Positions 11,057-19,495 are shown, numbered from the stretch's first letter. The stretch is DNA of 64,000 nucleotides from an uncultured bacterium (GCA_964502605.1 CAZCXK010000003.1:19476-83475), one strand, 5' to 3'. Numbers and translations are program-made. The notes: generated from the letters alone by a model not told the origin.

Positions 11057-12340
11057 TTAGAGCATCTCTCGACCGAGATAGGGCTGCAAAGCGTCTGGAA
11101 TGTGCACGGTGCCATCAGCTTGCTGGTAGTTCTCTAGAATGGCCGACATGGTGCGGCCAACGGCTAACCCTGACCCATTGAGCGTGTGAACAAATTGTGT
11201 TCCTCTTTTGCCCGCTGCCTTAAAACGAATGTTGCCTCGACGCGCCTGAAAATCTTGACAGTTTGAGCAACTCGAAATTTCTCGATAGGTTCCAGATGAA
11301 GGCAGCCACACTTCTAAGTCGTAGGTTTTAGTGGCGGCAAAGCCTAAGTCGCCCGTGCACAGCTCAATCACCCGATAGGGTAACTTCAGCGCTTGTAAAA
11401 TGCCTTCAGCATCTTGAGTCAGGCGTTCGTGCTCATCGGCTGACGTATCGGGATGCACGAATTTATACATCTCGACTTTATTAAACTGGTGCAGCCGAAT
11501 CAGCCCCCGTGTGTCGCGGCCATAGCTCCCAGCTTCGCGGCGAAAACAGGGTGTAAATGCACAGTAATGAAGGGGCAAATCATCAGCAGTGAGAATTTCA
11601 TCACGATGGAAGCTCGTCAGTGGCACCTCCGCCGTTGGTGTTAGCCATAAATCATCGCGATCGCACTTAAAGCTTTCATCGGCAAACTTTGGCAGTTGCC
11701 CCGAAGCGGTTAATGACTCAGTGCTGACCAAAAATGGCGGCATGATCTCGGTATATCCAGCGGCCACATGGCGATCGAGCATAAACTGGATTAGCGCCCG
11801 CTCGAGCGCAGCCCCTGCACCCACCAGTGAGACAAAACGGCTTTGGGCAATCCGCGTTGAGCGTTCAAAATTGAGAATACCCAGTTTTTCTCCCAGATCC
11901 CAGTGGGGCAGCAGTGCCGCCGAATCGGCTGGCAGATACTCATCTCCCCAGCGCCGCACCTCAATATTCTCGGTTTCATCGCGGCCAGTGGGCGTCGTCT
12001 GGCCAGGAAGATTGGGCAATGCTAACAGTTTGGCTTCAAGCACCGCCTTCAGGTCTCGTTCTTGAGGTTCTAGCTGACTCAGTTGCGCTTTGATCTGGTT
12101 GCCTTCGGTTTTCAGCGCGGCGATTTCATCACTCTGAGGGCTAACACCTGACTTGATCTTCTGGCCTACGGCTTTGCCAATTTCATTGCTGCGAGCCTGA
12201 AGTTGCGATCGCATTCCTTCTAATTCTCGCTGGCGTTGGTCAAGCTCCAGGATGGGCTGCAACTCGTAGCCGGGGCCCCGCAGGTTGAGGCGGGTTTGCA
12301 TCTCGTCTGGCTGGTCTCGGATCTGCTTGATATCTAGCAC
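11057..12340 (-). CDS. serS: Seryl-tRNA synthetase
   Basis: 427 aa. The N-terminal coiled-coil arm ([22 protein letters not shown]...) and class-II core motifs ([30 protein letters not shown]) are typical SerRS. Confidence 0.9.
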
Positions 12341-12623: not shown

Positions 12624-13943
12624 CTACCCGCCCGTCAGCAAACGGGTTTGCCTCAACAGAAATTGTAAAAACGTTTCTTCTCGCGAGATGATGTTTGCCT
12701 CCGCCTGCATACCAGCCTGCAACTGACATGGCCGCCTGTTGCGGGGTGTCGTTTGGATCAGGGTAATAGCGTCAGGTTGCAGCGTCACTTCAAAGTAGCT
12801 GGCGAGACTCTCCGGGCGATCGCCCCCCACCTCTGATCGACTCACATCAGGGGCGATCGCGGAGACCGTTGCAGCTAACGTGCCATAGTCAGGAAACGGG
12901 CAGGCTTCGATGCGGAGCTGCGACAATTGTCCCACCTGCACCCGATCAATGTCTTGGGTGTCAACTCGGGCCTTAATCACTAAATTTTGGGTGTTGGGGG
13001 CAATTTGGGCCACCACGTCCCCTGCCTGCACCACTTGATTGGGATTGCGCAAATTGAGTTGAAACACCGTGCCCTCAGTCGCAGCTCGAATGATAGTCTT
13101 CACCAAATCGGCGTCTACTTGCTGCAAGTCTTGCTGGGCCTGCAGCAACTGGGCCTGCAGCTCAGCTTGATTTTGCAACAGCAGTTCTTGTTCGCGCTGC
13201 AAGGTCGCTAGGGTGGCCCGACCTCGCGACTCTTCATGCAAAATTTGCTGTTGGGCGATCGCCACTCCCGCATCAATTGGGTTTAACGCCGCCCGTGCCC
13301 GCCGCACCTGAGCCATTGCCGTTTGGACTGCTGCCCGCTTTTCGTCGAGTTGCAGTTGAGAAACCGCCCCTGAATCAACTAACTGCTGATATCGCTGCAC
13401 TTCAACAGTGGCCAGATCCAATGCAGCCTGTGCTTCTGCGAGGTCGGCCTCAGTGGTCGCCTGCTGTTCACTCAACTCGCGCTGATTGCGATCGAGTTCT
13501 GACTGAGCCGTTGCGACAGTTTGGGCGATCGCCCTGGATTCTGACGCCATCTGCGCCCGCATCAGCTGGATTTGAGTTTCCACCTGGGCTCGTTGAATCT
13601 GTAGTTGCTGAACACCGCCCTGCAACTGCTGCTGTTGTGAGTTGAGTTGGGTGGGGTCGAGGCGGGCGATCACATCTCCCTGCTGCACAGTTTGATTAGG
13701 CTGTATGTCAATACTGGCAACAGTTCCCGTTAGTGCAGACTGCACCACGCGCAGCTCTCCGGCTGGGCGAACAGTCGCAGGGGCTCTGACAGCAACGTTG
13801 TAGGTCACGATCGAGGCTAGCCCCACAGCCAACCCCACGGCACCGATGAGCAATCCCCCTCCGACAATTATCCAGCGGCTAACCGGGGGAAGAAACTCGT
13901 CAACTTGAAGCGATCGCAAGGGTGAAGGTTTGGGATTGAACAT
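12624..13943 (-). CDS. HlyD-family membrane-fusion/periplasmic adaptor protein of a type I (bacteriocin-type) export system
   Basis: ATG at 13943 (MFNPKPSPLRSL...) precedes one N-terminal transmembrane helix (WIIVGGGLLIGAVGLAVGLASIV). A very long Q/A-rich coiled-coil follows, then a C-terminal beta domain. It lies directly downstream of the C39-ABC transporter. The six-frame ORF extends to 14111 and would overlap the transporter gene. Confidence 0.8.
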   Translation of the reverse strand: MFNPKPSPLRSLQVDEFLPPVSRWIIVGGGLLIGAVGLAVGLASIVTYNVAVRAPATVRPAGELRVVQSALTGTVASIDIQPNQTVQQGDVIARLDPTQLNSQQQQLQGGVQQLQIQRAQVETQIQLMRAQMASESRAIAQTVATAQSELDRNQRELSEQQATTEADLAEAQAALDLATVEVQRYQQLVDSGAVSQLQLDEKRAAVQTAMAQVRRARAALNPIDAGVAIAQQQILHEESRGRATLATLQREQELLLQNQAELQAQLLQAQQDLQQVDADLVKTIIRAATEGTVFQLNLRNPNQVVQAGDVVAQIAPNTQNLVIKARVDTQDIDRVQVGQLSQLRIEACPFPDYGTLAATVSAIAPDVSRSEVGGDRPESLASYFEVTLQPDAITLIQTTPRNRRPCQLQAGMQAEANIISREETFLQFLLRQTRLLTGG

Positions 13944-14011
13944 GGGATGAAGCCAGGTAAAGTGGCGCGAAACAGGTGAGAAAGAAAGGGAAAGGGCGAG
14001 AGGGAGACGTT

Positions 14012-16153
14012 TTATACCATCAGAAACTCTAAGTGATCGCCCATGTGTTCCCGTAGTTGATCGGGTGTGCCTTGCCGTTGCAGTTTGCCATTGTCTAGAA
14101 AGACAATCCAATCTGCTAGCTTAATCACGTTGGGACGATGGCTGATCAAAATAGTGGTTTTGCCCTGGCGATATGCCAACACACTTTTTAGGACATGTGC
14201 TTCACTGACGGGGTCTAATCCAGCGGTCGATTCGTCTAGCAGCAGCACAGGTGGATGGTTGATCATGGCACGGGCGATCGCCAACCGCTGCTTTTGACCT
14301 CCTGATAGATTCGAGCCAAACTCTCCCAAAATAGTTTGATACTTTTCGGGCAACCGCCCGATAAACTCATCGGCTCCCGTCATTTCACAGGCTGCAACTA
14401 GATCCTCAAAGGTGAGATGCGGATTGCCCAACCGAAAGTTTTCAATGATAGATCGGCTCCAGAAGTGGGCGTCTTGTGGCACCAAAACAACCTGTTGTCG
14501 AATGCACTCTAGAGCCAGATCATCTAAGTTGTAGTGCCCCATACGAATGTTGCCCGACTGCAACGCATAGAGTCCGGCAATGACCTTGGCCAGAGTGCTT
14601 TTACCACAGCCCGACTTGCCAATCAATGCCGTCACCCGCCCCGCCGGAATGGTCAGCGAGAAGTCGTTCAGCAAATCTACCCGCCCTGGATAATGAAAGC
14701 GCAGATCAGTACAAACAATATTTGCCACCTGAATTTCTACCCAGGGCTTTTGGGAGTCATGCTGGGTTTCAGGGGTGGCTTTGATCACCTCATCCAGCCG
14801 GGTGCTGGCCGTTTGCACGCGAATCCAATCATCGACCACACCCACAAGTTCATCAATCAGCGCGGTAATATTGCGGTTGAGTGTCGTGAAGGCCAGCAAC
14901 TGCCCGATGCTGAGTTCTTGATTAATCACCAATAAGCCACCCAGCCCTAAAATCGCGGCACTGCCAATATCTGCAACGATTTCACTAAACGTGCTATTAA
15001 AAATGCTGATGCGCGTCGTGCTCAGCATCAAGTTGGCCAGCCGCCCAAAGCGGCTTTGCATCTCATCCCAAAACTGATGCTCGGCGGCAGTTGTTTTCAG
15101 CGTCAGTGCGCCCTTGAAGGTTTCTACTAAGACGCCCTGTGTCTCGGTTTCCAACACCATCTCACTGCGGGTTTTCTGTCGCAAGATGGGCTGAAACACG
15201 ATAGTTGAAAGAGTCATTAAGACGGCCACAACCAGCGCCACTGCGGTCAGTTTCCAACTATAAAACAGCATCAGCCCCAGTGAAACTAGAGCAATCAACA
15301 CCGTGCTGGGCAGATTAATGATCACGCCTGAAACTAGCCGATTAATTTCTTCAATATCGCGCAGGCGGCTGACCACTTCTCCACTGCGGCGTGTTTCATA
15401 ATAAGTGAGGGGCAGGCGCAAAATCTGCTGACCAAACTCCAACACAAAACCCAGTTCCAGTCGTTGAGCAAAGTGAGCAATCAGATTGTCGGCCACCAAG
15501 CCTAAGCCACTTCTCACCAGATACATCAGCACAACCGCCAGCACAATGCCCAGCAGCAGGCGCGTGTCGCCGCGAATCAACACATCATCCGTCAAGATTT
15601 GGATAAAGAAAGGGGACGCCAGTGACAGTAAGCCAATCAGCGTGACACATAGCAACGATTCTAGTAAGATGCTGCGATAAGGTAGCAGTCGCCAGAGAAA
15701 CTGCCCCACACCGGTTATCGGGTCATCAGACTGGTGATAAAAGCGGCTAGGGTCTGGCTCAACCAGCAAAATCACGCCATCATGCCAGTCTTCTCTCAGC
15801 TCGGCTTCAGAGAGATAGCGCACACCCACGGCAGGGTCGGCAATCACATAGGTTTTTCCCCGCTTGCCATATAAAATTACCCAATGTTTGCCCCGCCAGT
15901 GAATCACAGCAGGCAGCGCGATGTCATGGAGGCGATCGAGAATTTCAGGAGAGGCGATCGCCGATCGGGCAAAAAATCCTAAGGCTTCACTGCCGCGCCG
16001 CAAGCCCAGCAGTGTCGTACCCAACTGTCCTGTTCCCACGGCTTCACGGGCGCGGCTGAGGCTAAATGTGCGCCCATAGTGTTTGGCAATGGAGGCCAAG
16101 CACGCGGCTCCACAGTCTTCTTCGCTGTGCTGCAAAACCAAGGGATAACGCAT
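14012..16153 (-). CDS. Peptidase-C39-containing ABC transporter (PCAT; bacteriocin/RiPP processing and export ATPase-permease)
   Basis: N-terminal C39 domain with the catalytic Cys in EEDCGAACLASIAKHYG and His in GKHWVILYG. Six transmembrane helices follow. The C-terminal ABC ATPase has Walker A GKSGCGKST, signature LSGGQKQRLAIARA and Walker B LLLDE. Confidence 0.85.
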   Translation of the reverse strand: MRYPLVLQHSEEDCGAACLASIAKHYGRTFSLSRAREAVGTGQLGTTLLGLRRGSEALGFFARSAIASPEILDRLHDIALPAVIHWRGKHWVILYGKRGKTYVIADPAVGVRYLSEAELREDWHDGVILLVEPDPSRFYHQSDDPITGVGQFLWRLLPYRSILLESLLCVTLIGLLSLASPFFIQILTDDVLIRGDTRLLLGIVLAVVLMYLVRSGLGLVADNLIAHFAQRLELGFVLEFGQQILRLPLTYYETRRSGEVVSRLRDIEEINRLVSGVIINLPSTVLIALVSLGLMLFYSWKLTAVALVVAVLMTLSTIVFQPILRQKTRSEMVLETETQGVLVETFKGALTLKTTAAEHQFWDEMQSRFGRLANLMLSTTRISIFNSTFSEIVADIGSAAILGLGGLLVINQELSIGQLLAFTTLNRNITALIDELVGVVDDWIRVQTASTRLDEVIKATPETQHDSQKPWVEIQVANIVCTDLRFHYPGRVDLLNDFSLTIPAGRVTALIGKSGCGKSTLAKVIAGLYALQSGNIRMGHYNLDDLALECIRQQVVLVPQDAHFWSRSIIENFRLGNPHLTFEDLVAACEMTGADEFIGRLPEKYQTILGEFGSNLSGGQKQRLAIARAMINHPPVLLLDESTAGLDPVSEAHVLKSVLAYRQGKTTILISHRPNVIKLADWIVFLDNGKLQRQGTPDQLREHMGDHLEFLMV

Positions 16154-16173
16154 GGAATATGGAGAACCGAGAA

Positions 16174-17250
16174 CTAGATGAATTCATTGAGAACCGAATA
16201 GCGATCGCCCGAATCTGGGTTGAGATAGGGCTGAGCGAGATCAATCTGATGGTGCTCAAACTGCTGCATGATGCAGTGTAGGCGATGGGCTGGTGTTTCA
16301 TCCCCTAGGGCTCTAGCAACTAAGAGCCCTTGAGCAACTAGCTGGCAGCGCTGTAAGCCAAAGTCAAGCGTGTCGTCATCGTCGGGGTCTTCTGCTAAGC
16401 CGATACCAGGTGCTAGCGGTTTCATAAACAGAGGAATAGCGGCATCAAGGTGCGATCGCCCCTGGTGATAAAACTGCTGCAATGGCACATAAATATCTGC
16501 ATAGCGATCGCGTTCGATCTGCAAAATAACTGCATCGTAGCGCCCATACTCTGCCGGATCATAAAGCGCTTTTAAGCTAAACGGCAGATCAGCGGCATTT
16601 AAGGCGGCGGGAATGTGCTGCATCAGGGCGATCGCCCCCACAGCACTTAGATTGAAGCAAATCTCAAGGCTGCTAGCCTCTTCGGGCACGAGTCCGGCAT
16701 TGCCCACGGCCACATAAAACCCCGCCTCTAGCCGGTTTTTTGGTAAGCGAATGGCCACCCGCTCACCCACATGGGCGGTCTGTTGAGCAGGATGGAGGTG
16801 GCGATCGCGCTCAATATGCACCGTCAGGTCTTCTTTTTGCACCGCCAAACTGCCGTCAGACTCTTGCCGCACAATGCTCCAGTCTGGATCAAAATATCCC
16901 TGCCCCGGATTGGCCTCATGCAATTGGGCATAAAAGTCGCGATTGACGCCTCGCAGCAGCTCATTCTTGAGCGGCGGCACTGGAGCAGCATCGGCCTCTA
17001 GCTCTAGCTCATGGCTGAAGTAAATGTCGTAAAGATAATCCCGTAGCTTTTGCTGCTGCAAGCGCTGCTGAAACGGAGTCGGCAGTTGCCGATAACAGGC
17101 AAGGACAGTCTCCGGCAGGTCTAAGGGCGGATAGGAAGCCTGCCAGATCTGAAAATCGGCGGCAATTTGAAGATGGGTGGCAATCTCAGTCAACGTTGCC
17201 ATCGTGGGAGTGGGAGTTAACACAGCAGGGGGCGAGGAGAAAGGCATCAT
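16174..17250 (-). CDS. Hypothetical 358-aa protein co-operonic with the kinase-like gene; candidate peptide-modification partner (possibly HopA1-like lyase-type), function unverified
   Basis: No motif I can name with certainty. It is tightly packed between the kinase-like gene (57-nt gap) and the PCAT gene (20-nt gap). It is soluble and acidic, with a DPDDDD patch. Confidence 0.35.
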   Translation of the reverse strand: MMPFSSPPAVLTPTPTMATLTEIATHLQIAADFQIWQASYPPLDLPETVLACYRQLPTPFQQRLQQQKLRDYLYDIYFSHELELEADAAPVPPLKNELLRGVNRDFYAQLHEANPGQGYFDPDWSIVRQESDGSLAVQKEDLTVHIERDRHLHPAQQTAHVGERVAIRLPKNRLEAGFYVAVGNAGLVPEEASSLEICFNLSAVGAIALMQHIPAALNAADLPFSLKALYDPAEYGRYDAVILQIERDRYADIYVPLQQFYHQGRSHLDAAIPLFMKPLAPGIGLAEDPDDDDTLDFGLQRCQLVAQGLLVARALGDETPAHRLHCIMQQFEHHQIDLAQPYLNPDSGDRYSVLNEFI

Positions 17251-17307
17251 AAGACAGCAAGAACCATAAGACTATCAGAACTGGAGCGGGCGATCGCCCC
17301 TGACGGA

Positions 17308-18492
17308 TCAAACTGGGAGCAACGGAGAAACCAGTTCAGACGCAGAGAGGCCCAACACTGCTGGAATTGATGGCTCTGGTGTAGACAACAAGGTTTTTGC
17401 AACTTGCAGCAAACAAATGCCTCGGTTGCCAAAAGGTTCTAGATAATAGAGCCGGGCTCGAATCGACTCTATCAATGCTAGCCCCGCAAACTGCATTATC
17501 CGCGTTAGCACATCGGGGCGGGCATTGACCAACGCCGGAAACTGCGTGAAATATGCGCGCAAAAATGCAATCATCGACGACTGGAGTGTTTCGAGTGGTG
17601 TGGTGGCAGACCGCAGAGACGTTTGCATATCGAGATCAGGGCTTACTACTAAACTCTTGAGCCAAATTTTGAGAAAATCTGCAATAATCATGCCGACATC
17701 ACTAGCCGGATCGCCCCAAATCCATTTTTCCCAGTCAATGAAGCGAATCGCAGGCTGGGGTACCCCAGCCTGTAAGTGAGACGACAGACCATCCCAATCG
17801 GTGTGCAACAGAATGTTGGTAAACTTCAAATCATTGTGGGTCAGACAGCAGGGAGTAAACGCTTTATTTAGAGCGGCGATCGCCCCTCCTAAGCTGTCAT
17901 AGCGCTGATACAGTTCATAAAATTTCAGCCCATCAGTAGCCACATTGCCAAAGATTTCAGGCGTAATTCTAGCCAGCCCATGACTCAAATCGGGAGGCTG
18001 ATCGAGTGGGTCATCGTCAAGCTTGCTCAGCGTTGTCTGAAACGTGCCGTGGTGAAACGTGGCCCTATGAACGGTTGCTAAGGCAGTACCTAAGGCCTTA
18101 GCAACCGCATCTGGAAATATCTGGTTGTGTTCATAAAACTGGTCTAGGTCACTATAGTTGTTGAGATAGTGAAACACCAAAATGGCATTTTCCGCATCCG
18201 CATCAATTGCAACTGAAAGCAGGGATTGCAGCTTGGCCAAATCAACATGCGATCGCATCCCTCGATAAAGCTGCCATTCATGCTCCAAATCTCGACGGGT
18301 GTTGCCCGCTTGATCATGGGGCTCTTGCTTGACTAGAAGAGAGCGATCGCCCGCTAAATGGACGAGTAAATTGAAGTTCTTAAAGATTTTAGGCTCAATG
18401 GTCGCACCCCGAAGGTCTGCGTTCGTGCAAAGATTTCGAGTGATTAAATACTCTAAAACAGTATCAGTTCCAAGAATTAAAGGCATTTTCAC
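17308..18492 (-). CDS. Protein-kinase-fold phosphotransferase (APH / CotS / choline-kinase-like family)
   Basis: An N-terminal lobe with a conserved Lys context (LLVKQE) is followed by the catalytic-loop motif HNDLKFTNILLH (compare HGDLhpgNil) and the downstream IDWEKW (compare IDWE), as in aminoglycoside-phosphotransferase-type kinases. Confidence 0.65.
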   Translation of the reverse strand: MKMPLILGTDTVLEYLITRNLCTNADLRGATIEPKIFKNFNLLVHLAGDRSLLVKQEPHDQAGNTRRDLEHEWQLYRGMRSHVDLAKLQSLLSVAIDADAENAILVFHYLNNYSDLDQFYEHNQIFPDAVAKALGTALATVHRATFHHGTFQTTLSKLDDDPLDQPPDLSHGLARITPEIFGNVATDGLKFYELYQRYDSLGGAIAALNKAFTPCCLTHNDLKFTNILLHTDWDGLSSHLQAGVPQPAIRFIDWEKWIWGDPASDVGMIIADFLKIWLKSLVVSPDLDMQTSLRSATTPLETLQSSMIAFLRAYFTQFPALVNARPDVLTRIMQFAGLALIESIRARLYYLEPFGNRGICLLQVAKTLLSTPEPSIPAVLGLSASELVSPLLPV

Positions 18493-18657
18493 TCCAGTCG
18501 CCGTAACACCCAGATATCATTTAATACTAGATTGGTTCCGTTTTTTTACATAAAAAAGCAAGGTCTTGATCATAGCTTTTTACCGCGTGATCAGCCCTGC
18601 TTTATGATTAAACTAGCACTTAACACGCCCTCAATTGATCATCGAGAAATGCCTGAC

Positions 18658-18954
18658 TTAGGTGCTGCTATTGCTGCGGCTGCGACCCGCTCGTAGCCGA
18701 CGCAGCCTGCGACGACGACGAAGTCTCCTGCGGCGGCGGCGAAGTCTCTTGCGACGGCGATCGCTTCTGCTAATAGATTTTTTACCTCCACCAATCATAG
18801 ACTCATCTTCTTCAGATAAGTCTTTCAAAAGGCTATCAGCGCCTAACAATAACGCTGAGCCAATTGCATGCTGATCAAGATCTACAGTTTCAATCATGGC
18901 TATATCTCCACAATTACTAACAGCTTCGACCGATTTAGAAGCTGATTTATTCAT
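18658..18954 (-). CDS. Candidate precursor peptide: 57-aa leader ending in a double-glycine motif (LKDLSEEDESMIGGG) followed by a 41-aa hyper-basic Arg-rich core
   Basis: The ATG at 18954 begins the operon. The leader matches the LSxxE(L)xxIxGG consensus cleaved by C39 peptidases. The core (KKSISRSDRRRKRLRRRRRRLRRRRRLRRLRAGRSRSNSST) is about 60% Arg. The plus-strand ORF 18662..18874 is its antisense shadow. Confidence 0.5.
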   Translation of the reverse strand: MNKSASKSVEAVSNCGDIAMIETVDLDQHAIGSALLLGADSLLKDLSEEDESMIGGGKKSISRSDRRRKRLRRRRRRLRRRRRLRRLRAGRSRSNSST

Positions 18955-19042: not shown

Positions 19043-19495
19043 TCATCTAAAAATGAGGCGTTGGTAAGAAGCAAGATGAATTAGGCAGGAACAGGGACAT
19101 CCCTGAACTTGAGGTAATGGATCAACAATCGGATAGAATGCTACAGTCCAGATCCAGATCTTATTTTGCTTTTTGCCTACAAAAGTCTCCAGTTCATCCA
19201 GTTCCCCCACTTGGGGGATTTCCTTTGGGTCATAGCTGTCCGGTAAGCGTTCCCCAGCCTGTGCAATCCAGTTCAAAATCGTGGTGTGGGCAATATTTGT
19301 CACACGGCTGATGCTGCGTACGCCCATACCATTGACATACATTCTCAAGCACAACTGTTTCACGTCATCGCTATAGCCTTGGCAGTCATAATGATCGAGA
19401 AACTGCCGTCCGCAGTTCACGCAAATGTAGTTCTGTTTCTGCTTTCGATGCCCATTTTTGCGAATATGTTCTCCACCACAATCAGGACATTTCAT
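19043..19495 (-). mobile_element. Truncated IS1-family transposase fragment (InsA-like zinc-finger/HTH part plus the first residues of the InsB-like catalytic part)
   Basis: CPDCGGEHIRKNG...YICVNCGRQF zinc finger, an HTH (GMGVRSISRVTNIAHTTILNWI) and then GELDELETFVGKKQNKIWIWTAV, which resembles the InsB N-terminus. The ORF ends after 150 aa, so the DDE domain is absent and the element is an inactive remnant. Confidence 0.6.

Follow-up and report, generated by a model that had tools for sequence, protein, structure and literature searches.

The window, as we call the whole stretch of DNA analyzed here, is a 64,000-nucleotide (nt) segment from an uncultured bacterium (GCA_964502605.1, CAZCXK010000003.1:19476-83475). 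Between positions 12624 and 18954, on its minus strand, five consecutive open reading frames (ORFs) encode a precursor peptide with a double-glycine (GG) leader and a poly-arginine core, an APH-fold kinase, a HopA1-fold protein of the LanY type, a peptidase-containing ABC transporter (PCAT) and a HlyD-family adaptor. The coordinates, the gene order and the intergenic gaps of 165, 57, 20 and 68 nt, for the starts used, agree with a preliminary description of this DNA made from the sequence alone; our ORF calls bear out the five-gene operon, with small start corrections for the precursor, the kinase and LanY. We give a probability of roughly one half to the reading that these genes form a self-contained cassette for a peptide made by the ribosome and modified after translation (RiPP), one that belongs to the LanK/LanY dehydratase family of the class V lanthipeptide type and represents a distinct cyanobacterial lineage within it, whose cargo is polycationic and protamine-like instead of hydrophobic or Cys-bearing.

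The precursor gene (18954-18658, minus strand) is a 98-residue ORF whose true start is more likely the internal ATG at 18897, giving 79 residues, since GGAG lies 8 nt upstream of this codon and the resulting N-terminus (MIETVDLDQHAIGSALLLG...) aligns with those of relatives (MPDILEVDLYPAGS; MPDILEVDLYPAGSALLLG...). The leader ends in ...LLKDLSEEDESMIGG, its last residues being MIGG. The 42-residue core that follows (18661..18786, minus strand) reads GKKSISRSDRRRKRLRRRRRRLRRRRRLRRLRAGRSRSNSST and contains 24 Lys/Arg, one Asp, eight Ser/Thr and no Cys, for a net charge of +23. It consists of an SxSxS cap, a poly-Arg block with Leu interruptions and an RSRSNSST cap. Within the core, Tandem Repeats Finder identified a 21-nt tandem repeat (18706..18760, minus strand, 2.6 copies) that encodes an LRRRRRR unit; the poly-Arg block has expanded through duplication of a seven-codon unit. 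Searches of the precursor against Pfam and NCBIfam gave no match at E up to 0.1, with Nif11, NHLP and class II signal models considered. The leader part is non-repetitive and matches the family model at E = 1e-13. In related loci a hidden Markov model (HMM) of the leader recovers a small homologous ORF immediately before the kinase (E = 1e-8 to 1e-16), and the earlier call of a double-glycine precursor with an Arg-rich, Cys-free core stands. It is the only GG-leader ORF found within the window. A 70-residue antisense ORF rich in Arg, Ser and Leu (18662-18874, plus strand) overlaps the core; we rejected it as a real gene, as it is a mirror image of the CGN/AGR codons and is without independent support. 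In the gap between precursor and kinase, the minus-strand RNA at about 18550-18606 contains a hairpin followed by a U-run (...CUUGCUUUUUUAU; z = -1.84 versus shuffles), which could be a leaky terminator that lifts the ratio of precursor to enzyme transcript. A consensus scan of the minus strand found no terminator between these two genes.

The kinase (18492-17308, minus strand, 394 residues) probably starts at the ATG at 18486, giving 392 residues, and LanY (17250-16174, minus strand, 358 residues) at 17247, giving 357; both are the starts called in an identical public contig. As the preliminary description proposed, the first protein is an APH-fold kinase. It matches the NCBIfam LxmK model NF038156 at E = 3.8e-21 and 75 bits, shows weak matches to Pfam APH and Kdo models, and has intact catalytic residues (K55, E72, H219-x-D221-x-x-x-x-N226 and D253). 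The equivalog cutoff of NF038156 is 315 bits, so the protein is a LxmK homolog and not an ortholog. Against solved structures the single sequence gave no match and a six-sequence profile gave marginal values only (APH 0.053, LxmK 0.068); the relationship to LxmK thus rests on the NCBIfam model and on the gene pairing.

The second protein is firmly placed. Suspected earlier to be HopA1-like, which could not then be confirmed, it matches Pfam PF17914 at E = 2.4e-42 and 145 bits (gathering score 22.7). A profile of the protein and its homologs matches LxmY, chain 9dk1_B of the LxmKY crystal structure 9DK1 of the lexapeptide dehydratase, at E = 1e-13. Its AlphaFold2 model (mean predicted local distance difference test score, pLDDT, 86.7) has LxmY as its best matches in the PDB (Foldseek E ~4e-19, template modeling score 0.68-0.78). 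Neither this protein nor the kinase falls into a housekeeping family. In the catalytic stretch the alignment is free of gaps and sets LxmY R189, K221, R231 and Y238 against E196, K227, R237 and Q244 of the window. The LxmY residues correspond to R187, K219, R229 and Y236 of CaoY, because their spacing is identical and the offset is two residues throughout. In CaoY, K219A abolishes phosphate elimination and R187A nearly abolishes it, both leaving phosphopeptides, and R229Q impairs it (PMC9486802). These three residues were mutagenized; Y236 is reported as conserved only (PMC9486802). The active-site set of the window LanY is E175, E196 (CaoY R187), K227 (K219), R237 (R229), Q244 (Y236) and D296.

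The export genes complete the operon. The PCAT (16153-14012, minus strand, 713 residues) is made up of a C39 protease, a transmembrane domain and an ATPase (Pfam C39, ABC_membrane and ABC_tran). Its C39 domain aligns over the full length with the structures of ComA and PCAT1, with Q8, Cys14, His90 and Asp106 in place, which confirms the retention of the catalytic Cys and His noted before. The last gene (13943-12624, minus strand) encodes a HlyD-family periplasmic adaptor of 439 residues from its ATG, the mechanical ORF extending to a TTG at 14111; its assignment, also made earlier, is upheld by matches to Pfam HlyD_3 and NCBIfam type_I_hlyD (E = 5.7e-47).

Placing the window among its relatives required a survey of 169 sources, comprising 168 fetched loci and the window itself; L numbers below refer to these. 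A protein search returned 195 LanY matches at E <= 1e-5. At least 583 LanK/LanY loci were confirmed in species-representative genomes, and the 80 of them that were fetched are cyanobacterial, except for one bin labeled Rhizobium and a few bins without a name. A metagenome scan with the window LanY alone found nothing; repeated with a subclade alignment, it yielded 80 loci, none more than 47% identical, and the close relatives were obtained through exact-protein look-ups. The kinase lies directly upstream of LanY in 147 of the 169 sources, and PCAT and HlyD lie within 10 kb in most. An iterated leader HMM collected 315 GG-leader small ORFs in the examined loci, and the window leader shares homology with the leader general among cyanobacteria, xSESFLxDLSExE...GG.

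Two groups emerge from this survey. Canonical loci carry a LanY with the signature Q175/R196/Y244 and several precursors each (288 in 120 loci), with near-neutral, mostly hydrophobic cores whose median Lys plus Arg fraction is 0.05; across the loci examined, 143 LanYs carry R196/Y244. The window belongs to a polybasic lineage, with one precursor per locus, a core Lys plus Arg fraction of 0.31-0.61 and a dedicated colinear PCAT. We found 16 distinct related precursors in about 19 loci, with the common leader ...FLKDLSEEDExxIxGG and with different codons and repeat structures. This number is a lower bound, because the large protein database appears not to index such small ORFs; a search of it with the leader gave no candidate precursors. 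The preliminary description had suggested looking for an Arg-rich ORF in orthologous operons, and an Arg/Lys-rich precursor is indeed present upstream in relatives. The order precursor, kinase, LanY, PCAT and HlyD is kept, together with a polybasic precursor, in L001/L166, L002, L003, L012, L086 and L161-L168, and with variations in L081, L112, L114 and L129. Down to a LanY identity of about 41%, the polybasic precursor is always directly upstream of the kinase-LanY pair and in the same orientation.

The cores of this lineage follow a recurring plan, in which alternating Ser residues (SxSxS or SxS) cap a basic block at each end, or Ser/Thr alternates with Lys/Arg throughout. Cores with the plan of the window occur in L001/L166, L162, L164, L167 and L168, and a shorter SxS N-terminal cap in L003/L012/L086; examples are DRSNSNSGRRPRRRRRRRRRNRSISRT (L001/L166), DRSNSRSDRRPRRRPRRRPRRNRSRSRT (L164), ARSRSNSRRAVVRRRRAAARRRRLIRRRRRRVAARRNASSMSFSRT (L162), ANSVSNSGLSLAQRRRRQLALRRRR...AAAANSVSRS (L167) and KRSQSGRAKKKKKRRVRRARRRVVRSRSNSRS (L003). 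Other polybasic cores show strict (KS)n or (RT)n alternation, and the deeper-branching ones include RRTRTRTRGRTRTRTRTGRR (L112), RHGRGGGRTRTRTRG (L002) and a (KS)n stretch followed by a Cys-rich tail (L114, L129). Cys is absent from the cores of all poly-Arg relatives. Ser and Thr are the only non-basic residues systematically kept in polybasic cores, which argues that they are the sites of modification. Hydroxy residues also alternate in the canonical clade, where L064 (8067-8267, ARATVTITLTYTVTLTRTYSYTWTRTRTF) and L062 (5749-5952, VMITPTITTITLTTTITFTLRRR) encode Thr-periodic cores, making this a recurring substrate theme beyond the polybasic lineage. A more acidic leader that might mask the core in the polybasic clade was considered and rejected, the median charge over the last 30 residues being -5 versus -6.

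The enzymes of the polybasic lineage differ from the canonical ones in charge. In every locus with a polybasic precursor, LanY residue 196 is not Arg and is mostly Glu, and residue 175 is Glu or Asp; over the lineage as a whole, Glu, Asp, Asn, Tyr, Ala or His takes the place of Arg187. A Lys plus Arg fraction of at least 0.30 is found in one of the 288 precursors beside R196 LanYs, versus 19 of the 22 loci in which residue 196 is neither Arg nor Lys. Among 119 cluster representatives and the window protein, few positions separate the two LanY groups, and their changes are directional (Q175E, R196E/D, S296D and G75D). Q175E lies three residues before a Phe/Tyr pair that is said to guard LxmY's active site (PMC12141560), and S296D lies immediately before the invariant FG...R motif. 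Such acidic substitutions at the mouth of LanY probably accommodate the Arg and Lys side chains of the substrate. In the 41 representatives of the polybasic-type group, K227 is retained in 88%, R237 in 80%, D239 in 80% and R301 in 98%, and 71 LanY positions are conserved in both clades; judged by sequence, this retention suggests that purifying selection acts on more than a scaffold. The kinase shows a similar trend, with K352E and R58P in the polybasic group and a mean net charge of -16 there versus -10 in the canonical one, and its catalytic residues are invariant across both clades. In a neighbor-joining tree the polybasic-associated LanYs form essentially one lineage, and a search of this tree for independent origins of R196 loss and polybasic cargo found none. 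The association of residue 196 with cargo would then be essentially one evolutionary event, maintained over deep divergence.

Other departures from the CaoY set occur elsewhere in the family. A Nostocales subgroup (Anabaena, Cylindrospermum and Calothrix; P0090, P0091, P0094, P0106-P0108 and P0117) keeps R196. Its equivalent of K219 is Gln or Glu, as in 17 of the 73 representatives with R196, and His often replaces Tyr244, a second natural departure. In some loci of Nostoc, Brasilonema and Iphinoe the first kinase-LanY pair is followed, about 2-3 kb downstream, by another and divergent one, the second copy lying at 13556-14587 in L015, 13164-14192 in L030 and 9637-10683 in L037, with further copies in L039, L045, L048, L101, L139, L141 and L144. 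The LanYs of these copies read I196/Y227/R244 (or E227/L237/K244), lack the canonical catalytic set, and fall on the same side of the tree as the polybasic lineage, on long branches. In L121 (2099-3139) a LanY with Trp196 is paired with an acidic Pro/Thr-rich core (TAETPGPDETPPPTPDETPGTT), the opposite charge extreme to the cargo of the window.

The exporter also tracks the lineage. PCAT orthologs 64-88% identical to that of the window adjoin the kinase-LanY pair in polybasic loci, in nearly all of them directly downstream of LanY; in canonical loci the PCAT is 31-34% identical and is colinear directly downstream in none of 108. HlyD is colinear in L161, L162, L164, L167, L002, L003, L012 and L086. 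L001 and L166, which share the same precursor and cluster, have the precursor, kinase, LanY and PCAT, and a HlyD homolog was not detected downstream of PCAT; L166 has a CsbD gene about 700 nt after PCAT. A general tie between the window-type PCAT clade and polybasic cargo can be discarded. In L079 (13697-17245) a 59%-identical PCAT stands beside two large non-basic GG-leader proteins (128 and 114 residues, ...ATVEGG and ...AVIEGG), which indicates that this exporter clade is not restricted to such cargo.

The pairing of a stand-alone APH-fold kinase with a HopA1-fold partner is shared with class V lanthipeptide systems (CaoK/CaoY for cacaoidin, LxmK/LxmY for lexapeptide) and with the thioamitide proteins TvaC/TvaD and TsaC/TsaD. 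Shared too are the LanY fold, the catalytic Lys, the equivalents of Arg229 and Arg301, and a leader-bearing precursor with Ser/Thr in its core. The window differs in its cyanobacterial host, double-glycine leader, dedicated PCAT and HlyD, +23 cargo, Glu at the Arg187 equivalent and Gln at the Tyr236 equivalent, and its core, being without Cys, is without lanthionine or aminovinylcysteine. Class V lanthipeptide clusters have LanX and LanD (Va) or LanC (Vb) as partners, and thioamitide clusters have YcaO/TfuA and a Cys decarboxylase beside the kinase-HopA1 pair. In contrast, a search confined to the locus, with the rest of the genome outside it, gave no Pfam match to LanX, LanD, LanC, YcaO or TfuA among the five operon proteins and the flanking proteins, and none to a Cys decarboxylase among the operon proteins or their neighbors. 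PCAT-exported GG peptides (ComA, PCAT1, LahT) resemble the window system in the C39 Cys/His/Asp triad, the GG leader and the HlyD-type adaptor, but the window has two tailoring enzymes in the operon, a near-homopolymeric polycation as cargo and no immunity gene. A compositional analogy, without homology, can be drawn with protamines, SR/RS domains and diatom silaffins, which are likewise dominated by Arg/Lys with Ser clusters as kinase targets, and the (KS)n relatives resemble silaffin repeats in composition only. Those proteins are eukaryotic and, unlike the window system, have no leader peptide, dedicated export or lyase partner.

Clusters of this kind are already known from genome mining, so that the novelty claimed in the preliminary description, which recognized the combination from no described class, was somewhat overstated. 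Eyles et al. (2021) catalogued 1,340 HopA1 proteins, 96% paired with a phosphotransferase, and defined a 'Family 1A', restricted to cyanobacteria, whose 570 GG-leader precursors have hypervariable cores and come from 183 clusters (PMC8153245). Poly-Arg and (KS)n precursors are listed in the supplement of that study, in separate small families that its text does not discuss: family 103 (Scytonema), family 118 (filamentous cyanobacterium CCP1 and Cyanobium PCC 7001) and family 142 (Leptolyngbya sp. IPPAS B-1204 and L. ohadii IS1) (PMC8153245). Liang et al. (2022) reported cyanobacterial 'type-B' LanA candidates, for which only Cys-containing ORFs were selected (PMC9486802). The Family 1A and type-B clusters, described by genome mining only, resemble the window in phylum, kinase-LanY pair, homologous GG leader, and PCAT and HlyD nearby. 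Family 1A clusters differ in having several precursors with hydrophobic cores, whereas the lineage of the window has a single polybasic precursor, an acidic LanY and its own colinear PCAT. What remains of the earlier claim is that such clusters are uncharacterized and the poly-Arg precursors undiscussed; our full-text literature searches found no characterized product of any cyanobacterial LanK/LanY cluster and no described polybasic class. What appears to be undescribed is the polybasic lineage as a coherent unit, together with its five-gene layout of one precursor and a dedicated exporter and the charge swap at the active site.

We propose a model in which translation of the precursor, whose gene is conserved, would yield a peptide with an acidic leader of the double-glycine type, about 36 residues long. 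The kinase and LanY would bind this leader as a heterodimer, and the kinase would phosphorylate the Ser/Thr caps at both ends of the poly-Arg block (SxSxS at each). CaoK/CaoY and LxmK/LxmY dehydrate Ser/Thr as heterodimers (PMC9486802; PMC12141560), and this homology, with the intact kinase motifs, makes cap phosphorylation the most likely reaction by analogy. In the least secure step, LanY would then beta-eliminate the phosphate to leave dehydroalanine (Dha) or dehydrobutyrine (Dhb) in the caps, an outcome to which we give even odds for a LanY so remodeled. Arg and Lys side chains of the substrate, held by E175, E196 and D296, may stand in for the missing Arg, and the clustering of acidic substitutions at the active-site motifs suggests that the basic core still enters the site. 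The PCAT would cut after Gly-Gly and, with HlyD and an unlinked outer-membrane channel, export a 42-residue peptide of about +23, as its intact domains and catalytic residues imply. A linear polycation would result. Lanthionine cannot form, as the core lacks Cys and the operon a cyclase, and the product is not a lanthipeptide in the defining sense. Its most plausible role would be that of a secreted antimicrobial or polyanion-binding peptide; the operon contains no immunity gene to back a bacteriocin role. Leader-directed recognition, cap phosphorylation, and Gly-Gly cleavage with export appear well supported by homology and by the conserved genes and motifs.

Several observations weigh against dehydration by this cassette. 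The window LanY lacks two of the four residues emphasized in CaoY, having Glu196 for Arg187 and Gln244 for Tyr236, and a Glu at the Arg187 equivalent cannot stabilize the enolate or bind phosphate. The homologous kinase-HopA1 pair of the preliminary description is confirmed, but this weakens its assumption that the partner is a working lyase. In the polybasic lineage the Tyr236 equivalent varies widely (R, Y, Q, C, H or N), as if unconstrained, and the LanYs of L081 and L112 lack the R229 equivalent and keep only the Lys of the four residues. The kinase scores far under the LxmK equivalog cutoff. The association of residue 196 with cargo charge does not consist of independent replicates, since it falls in essentially one lineage. 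The literature yielded no experiments on any cyanobacterial LanK/LanY member. Phosphorylation may instead be the end point in this lineage, which we consider possible, at clearly less than even odds. LanY would then perform no lyase chemistry and be kept as a partner that the kinase needs structurally and as an acidic dock for the basic core, and the exported product would bear stable phosphoserine/phosphothreonine caps, or be phosphorylated throughout in the (KS)n/(RT)n relatives. Such a peptide would be zwitterionic, like phosphorylated protamines, SR domains and diatom silaffins, and phosphorylation could mask a toxic polycation inside the producer. The loss of Arg187 throughout the lineage, the unconstrained Tyr236 position and the Lys-only LanYs of L112 and L081 fit this account, as does the accumulation of phosphopeptide by CaoY R187A (PMC9486802). 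LxmK is insoluble without LxmY (PMC12141560), so that selection would retain even a LanY devoid of catalysis. Charge neutralization would also matter greatly for a +23 peptide, in which a few Dha would change little. A pure scaffold, however, would not need K227, R237, D239 and R301, polar residues shared with LxmY that are mostly conserved; the acidic substitutions adjoin active-site motifs, suggesting core entry; and the Cys-rich C-termini of deeper-branching relatives (L114, L129 and a Pleurocapsa peptide) are sensible if Dha forms. Somewhat less probable again is the more specific proposal that LanY is an acidic, substrate-holding pseudo-enzyme and that the secreted polyarginine or (KS)n/(RT)n peptide carries stable phosphoserine/phosphothreonine.

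Accounts that detach the peptide from the enzymes fare worse. The PCAT, HlyD and GG leader make a complete class-II-like export module, as would suit an unmodified double-glycine bacteriocin with the kinase-LanY pair acting elsewhere or merely co-located. We regard this as improbable, given that the precursor is always directly upstream of the pair and in its orientation, to about 41% LanY identity, that its leader is homologous to those of canonical kinase-LanY clusters, that the electrostatics of the enzymes co-vary with cargo charge, and that Ser/Thr positions are conserved within otherwise purely basic cores. The Arg-rich ORF could also be thought a spurious frame through a GC-rich tandem repeat, with the real substrate encoded elsewhere; the 21-nt repeat, the long Arg/Ser/Leu ORF on the opposite strand and an IS1 fragment just upstream, which marks the locus as disturbed, might be taken that way. 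Conservation effectively refutes this. At least 16 distinct homologs in different cyanobacteria combine the same leader with a polybasic core in different codons and repeats, and the leader lies outside the repeat, matches the family model and belongs to the sole GG-leader ORF of the window.

The genes that flank the operon are unrelated to it and include a seryl-tRNA synthetase, an SLH-OprB porin, a Uma2 nuclease, a 555-residue membrane protein and a truncated IS1 transposase. The IS1-family fragment (19043-19495, minus strand, 150 residues) lies 89 nt upstream of the precursor ORF and matches the NCBIfam IS1 model at E = 1e-40 over profile positions 1-119 of 199. A stromatolite metagenome holds an identical locus, flanking IS1 fragment and Uma2 gene included, and since this contig (L169) is independent, the fragment is not an assembly artifact; it may have displaced the native promoter. 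The seryl-tRNA synthetase (11057-12340, minus strand) follows HlyD on the same strand, 283 nt downstream. Relatives do not keep it beside the cluster, and its adjacency to a Ser-modifying operon is probably a coincidence.

HopA1-fold lyases include plant-pathogen effectors, and the window LanY poses a mechanistic question for this fold as a whole. Either a LanY with Glu in place of the Arg that CaoY requires eliminates phosphate, possibly aided by arginines of the substrate, or a dehydratase has been turned into a pure peptide kinase, and either outcome extends what is known of these enzymes. The polybasic sub-lineage offers the simplest entry to cyanobacterial LanK/LanY systems, with five genes, one precursor and no cyclase. 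Its directional changes of charge in kinase and LanY, together with a dedicated transporter lineage, provide a natural example of enzymes that track the charge of their cargo. A ribosomal, enzyme-capped, secreted polyarginine is a peptide type that we did not find described from bacteria in the literature searched, and it would bear on antimicrobial and cell-penetrating peptides as well as on the binding of polyanions in the manner of protamines. Should phosphorylation be the end point, the secreted phosphopeptide would parallel, in bacteria, phosphorylated protamines and silaffins. It could then serve to condense or organize extracellular polyanions or minerals in mats and stromatolites, and not to kill competitors, with extracellular DNA, sulfated exopolysaccharides, polyphosphate, silica and carbonate as candidate partners.

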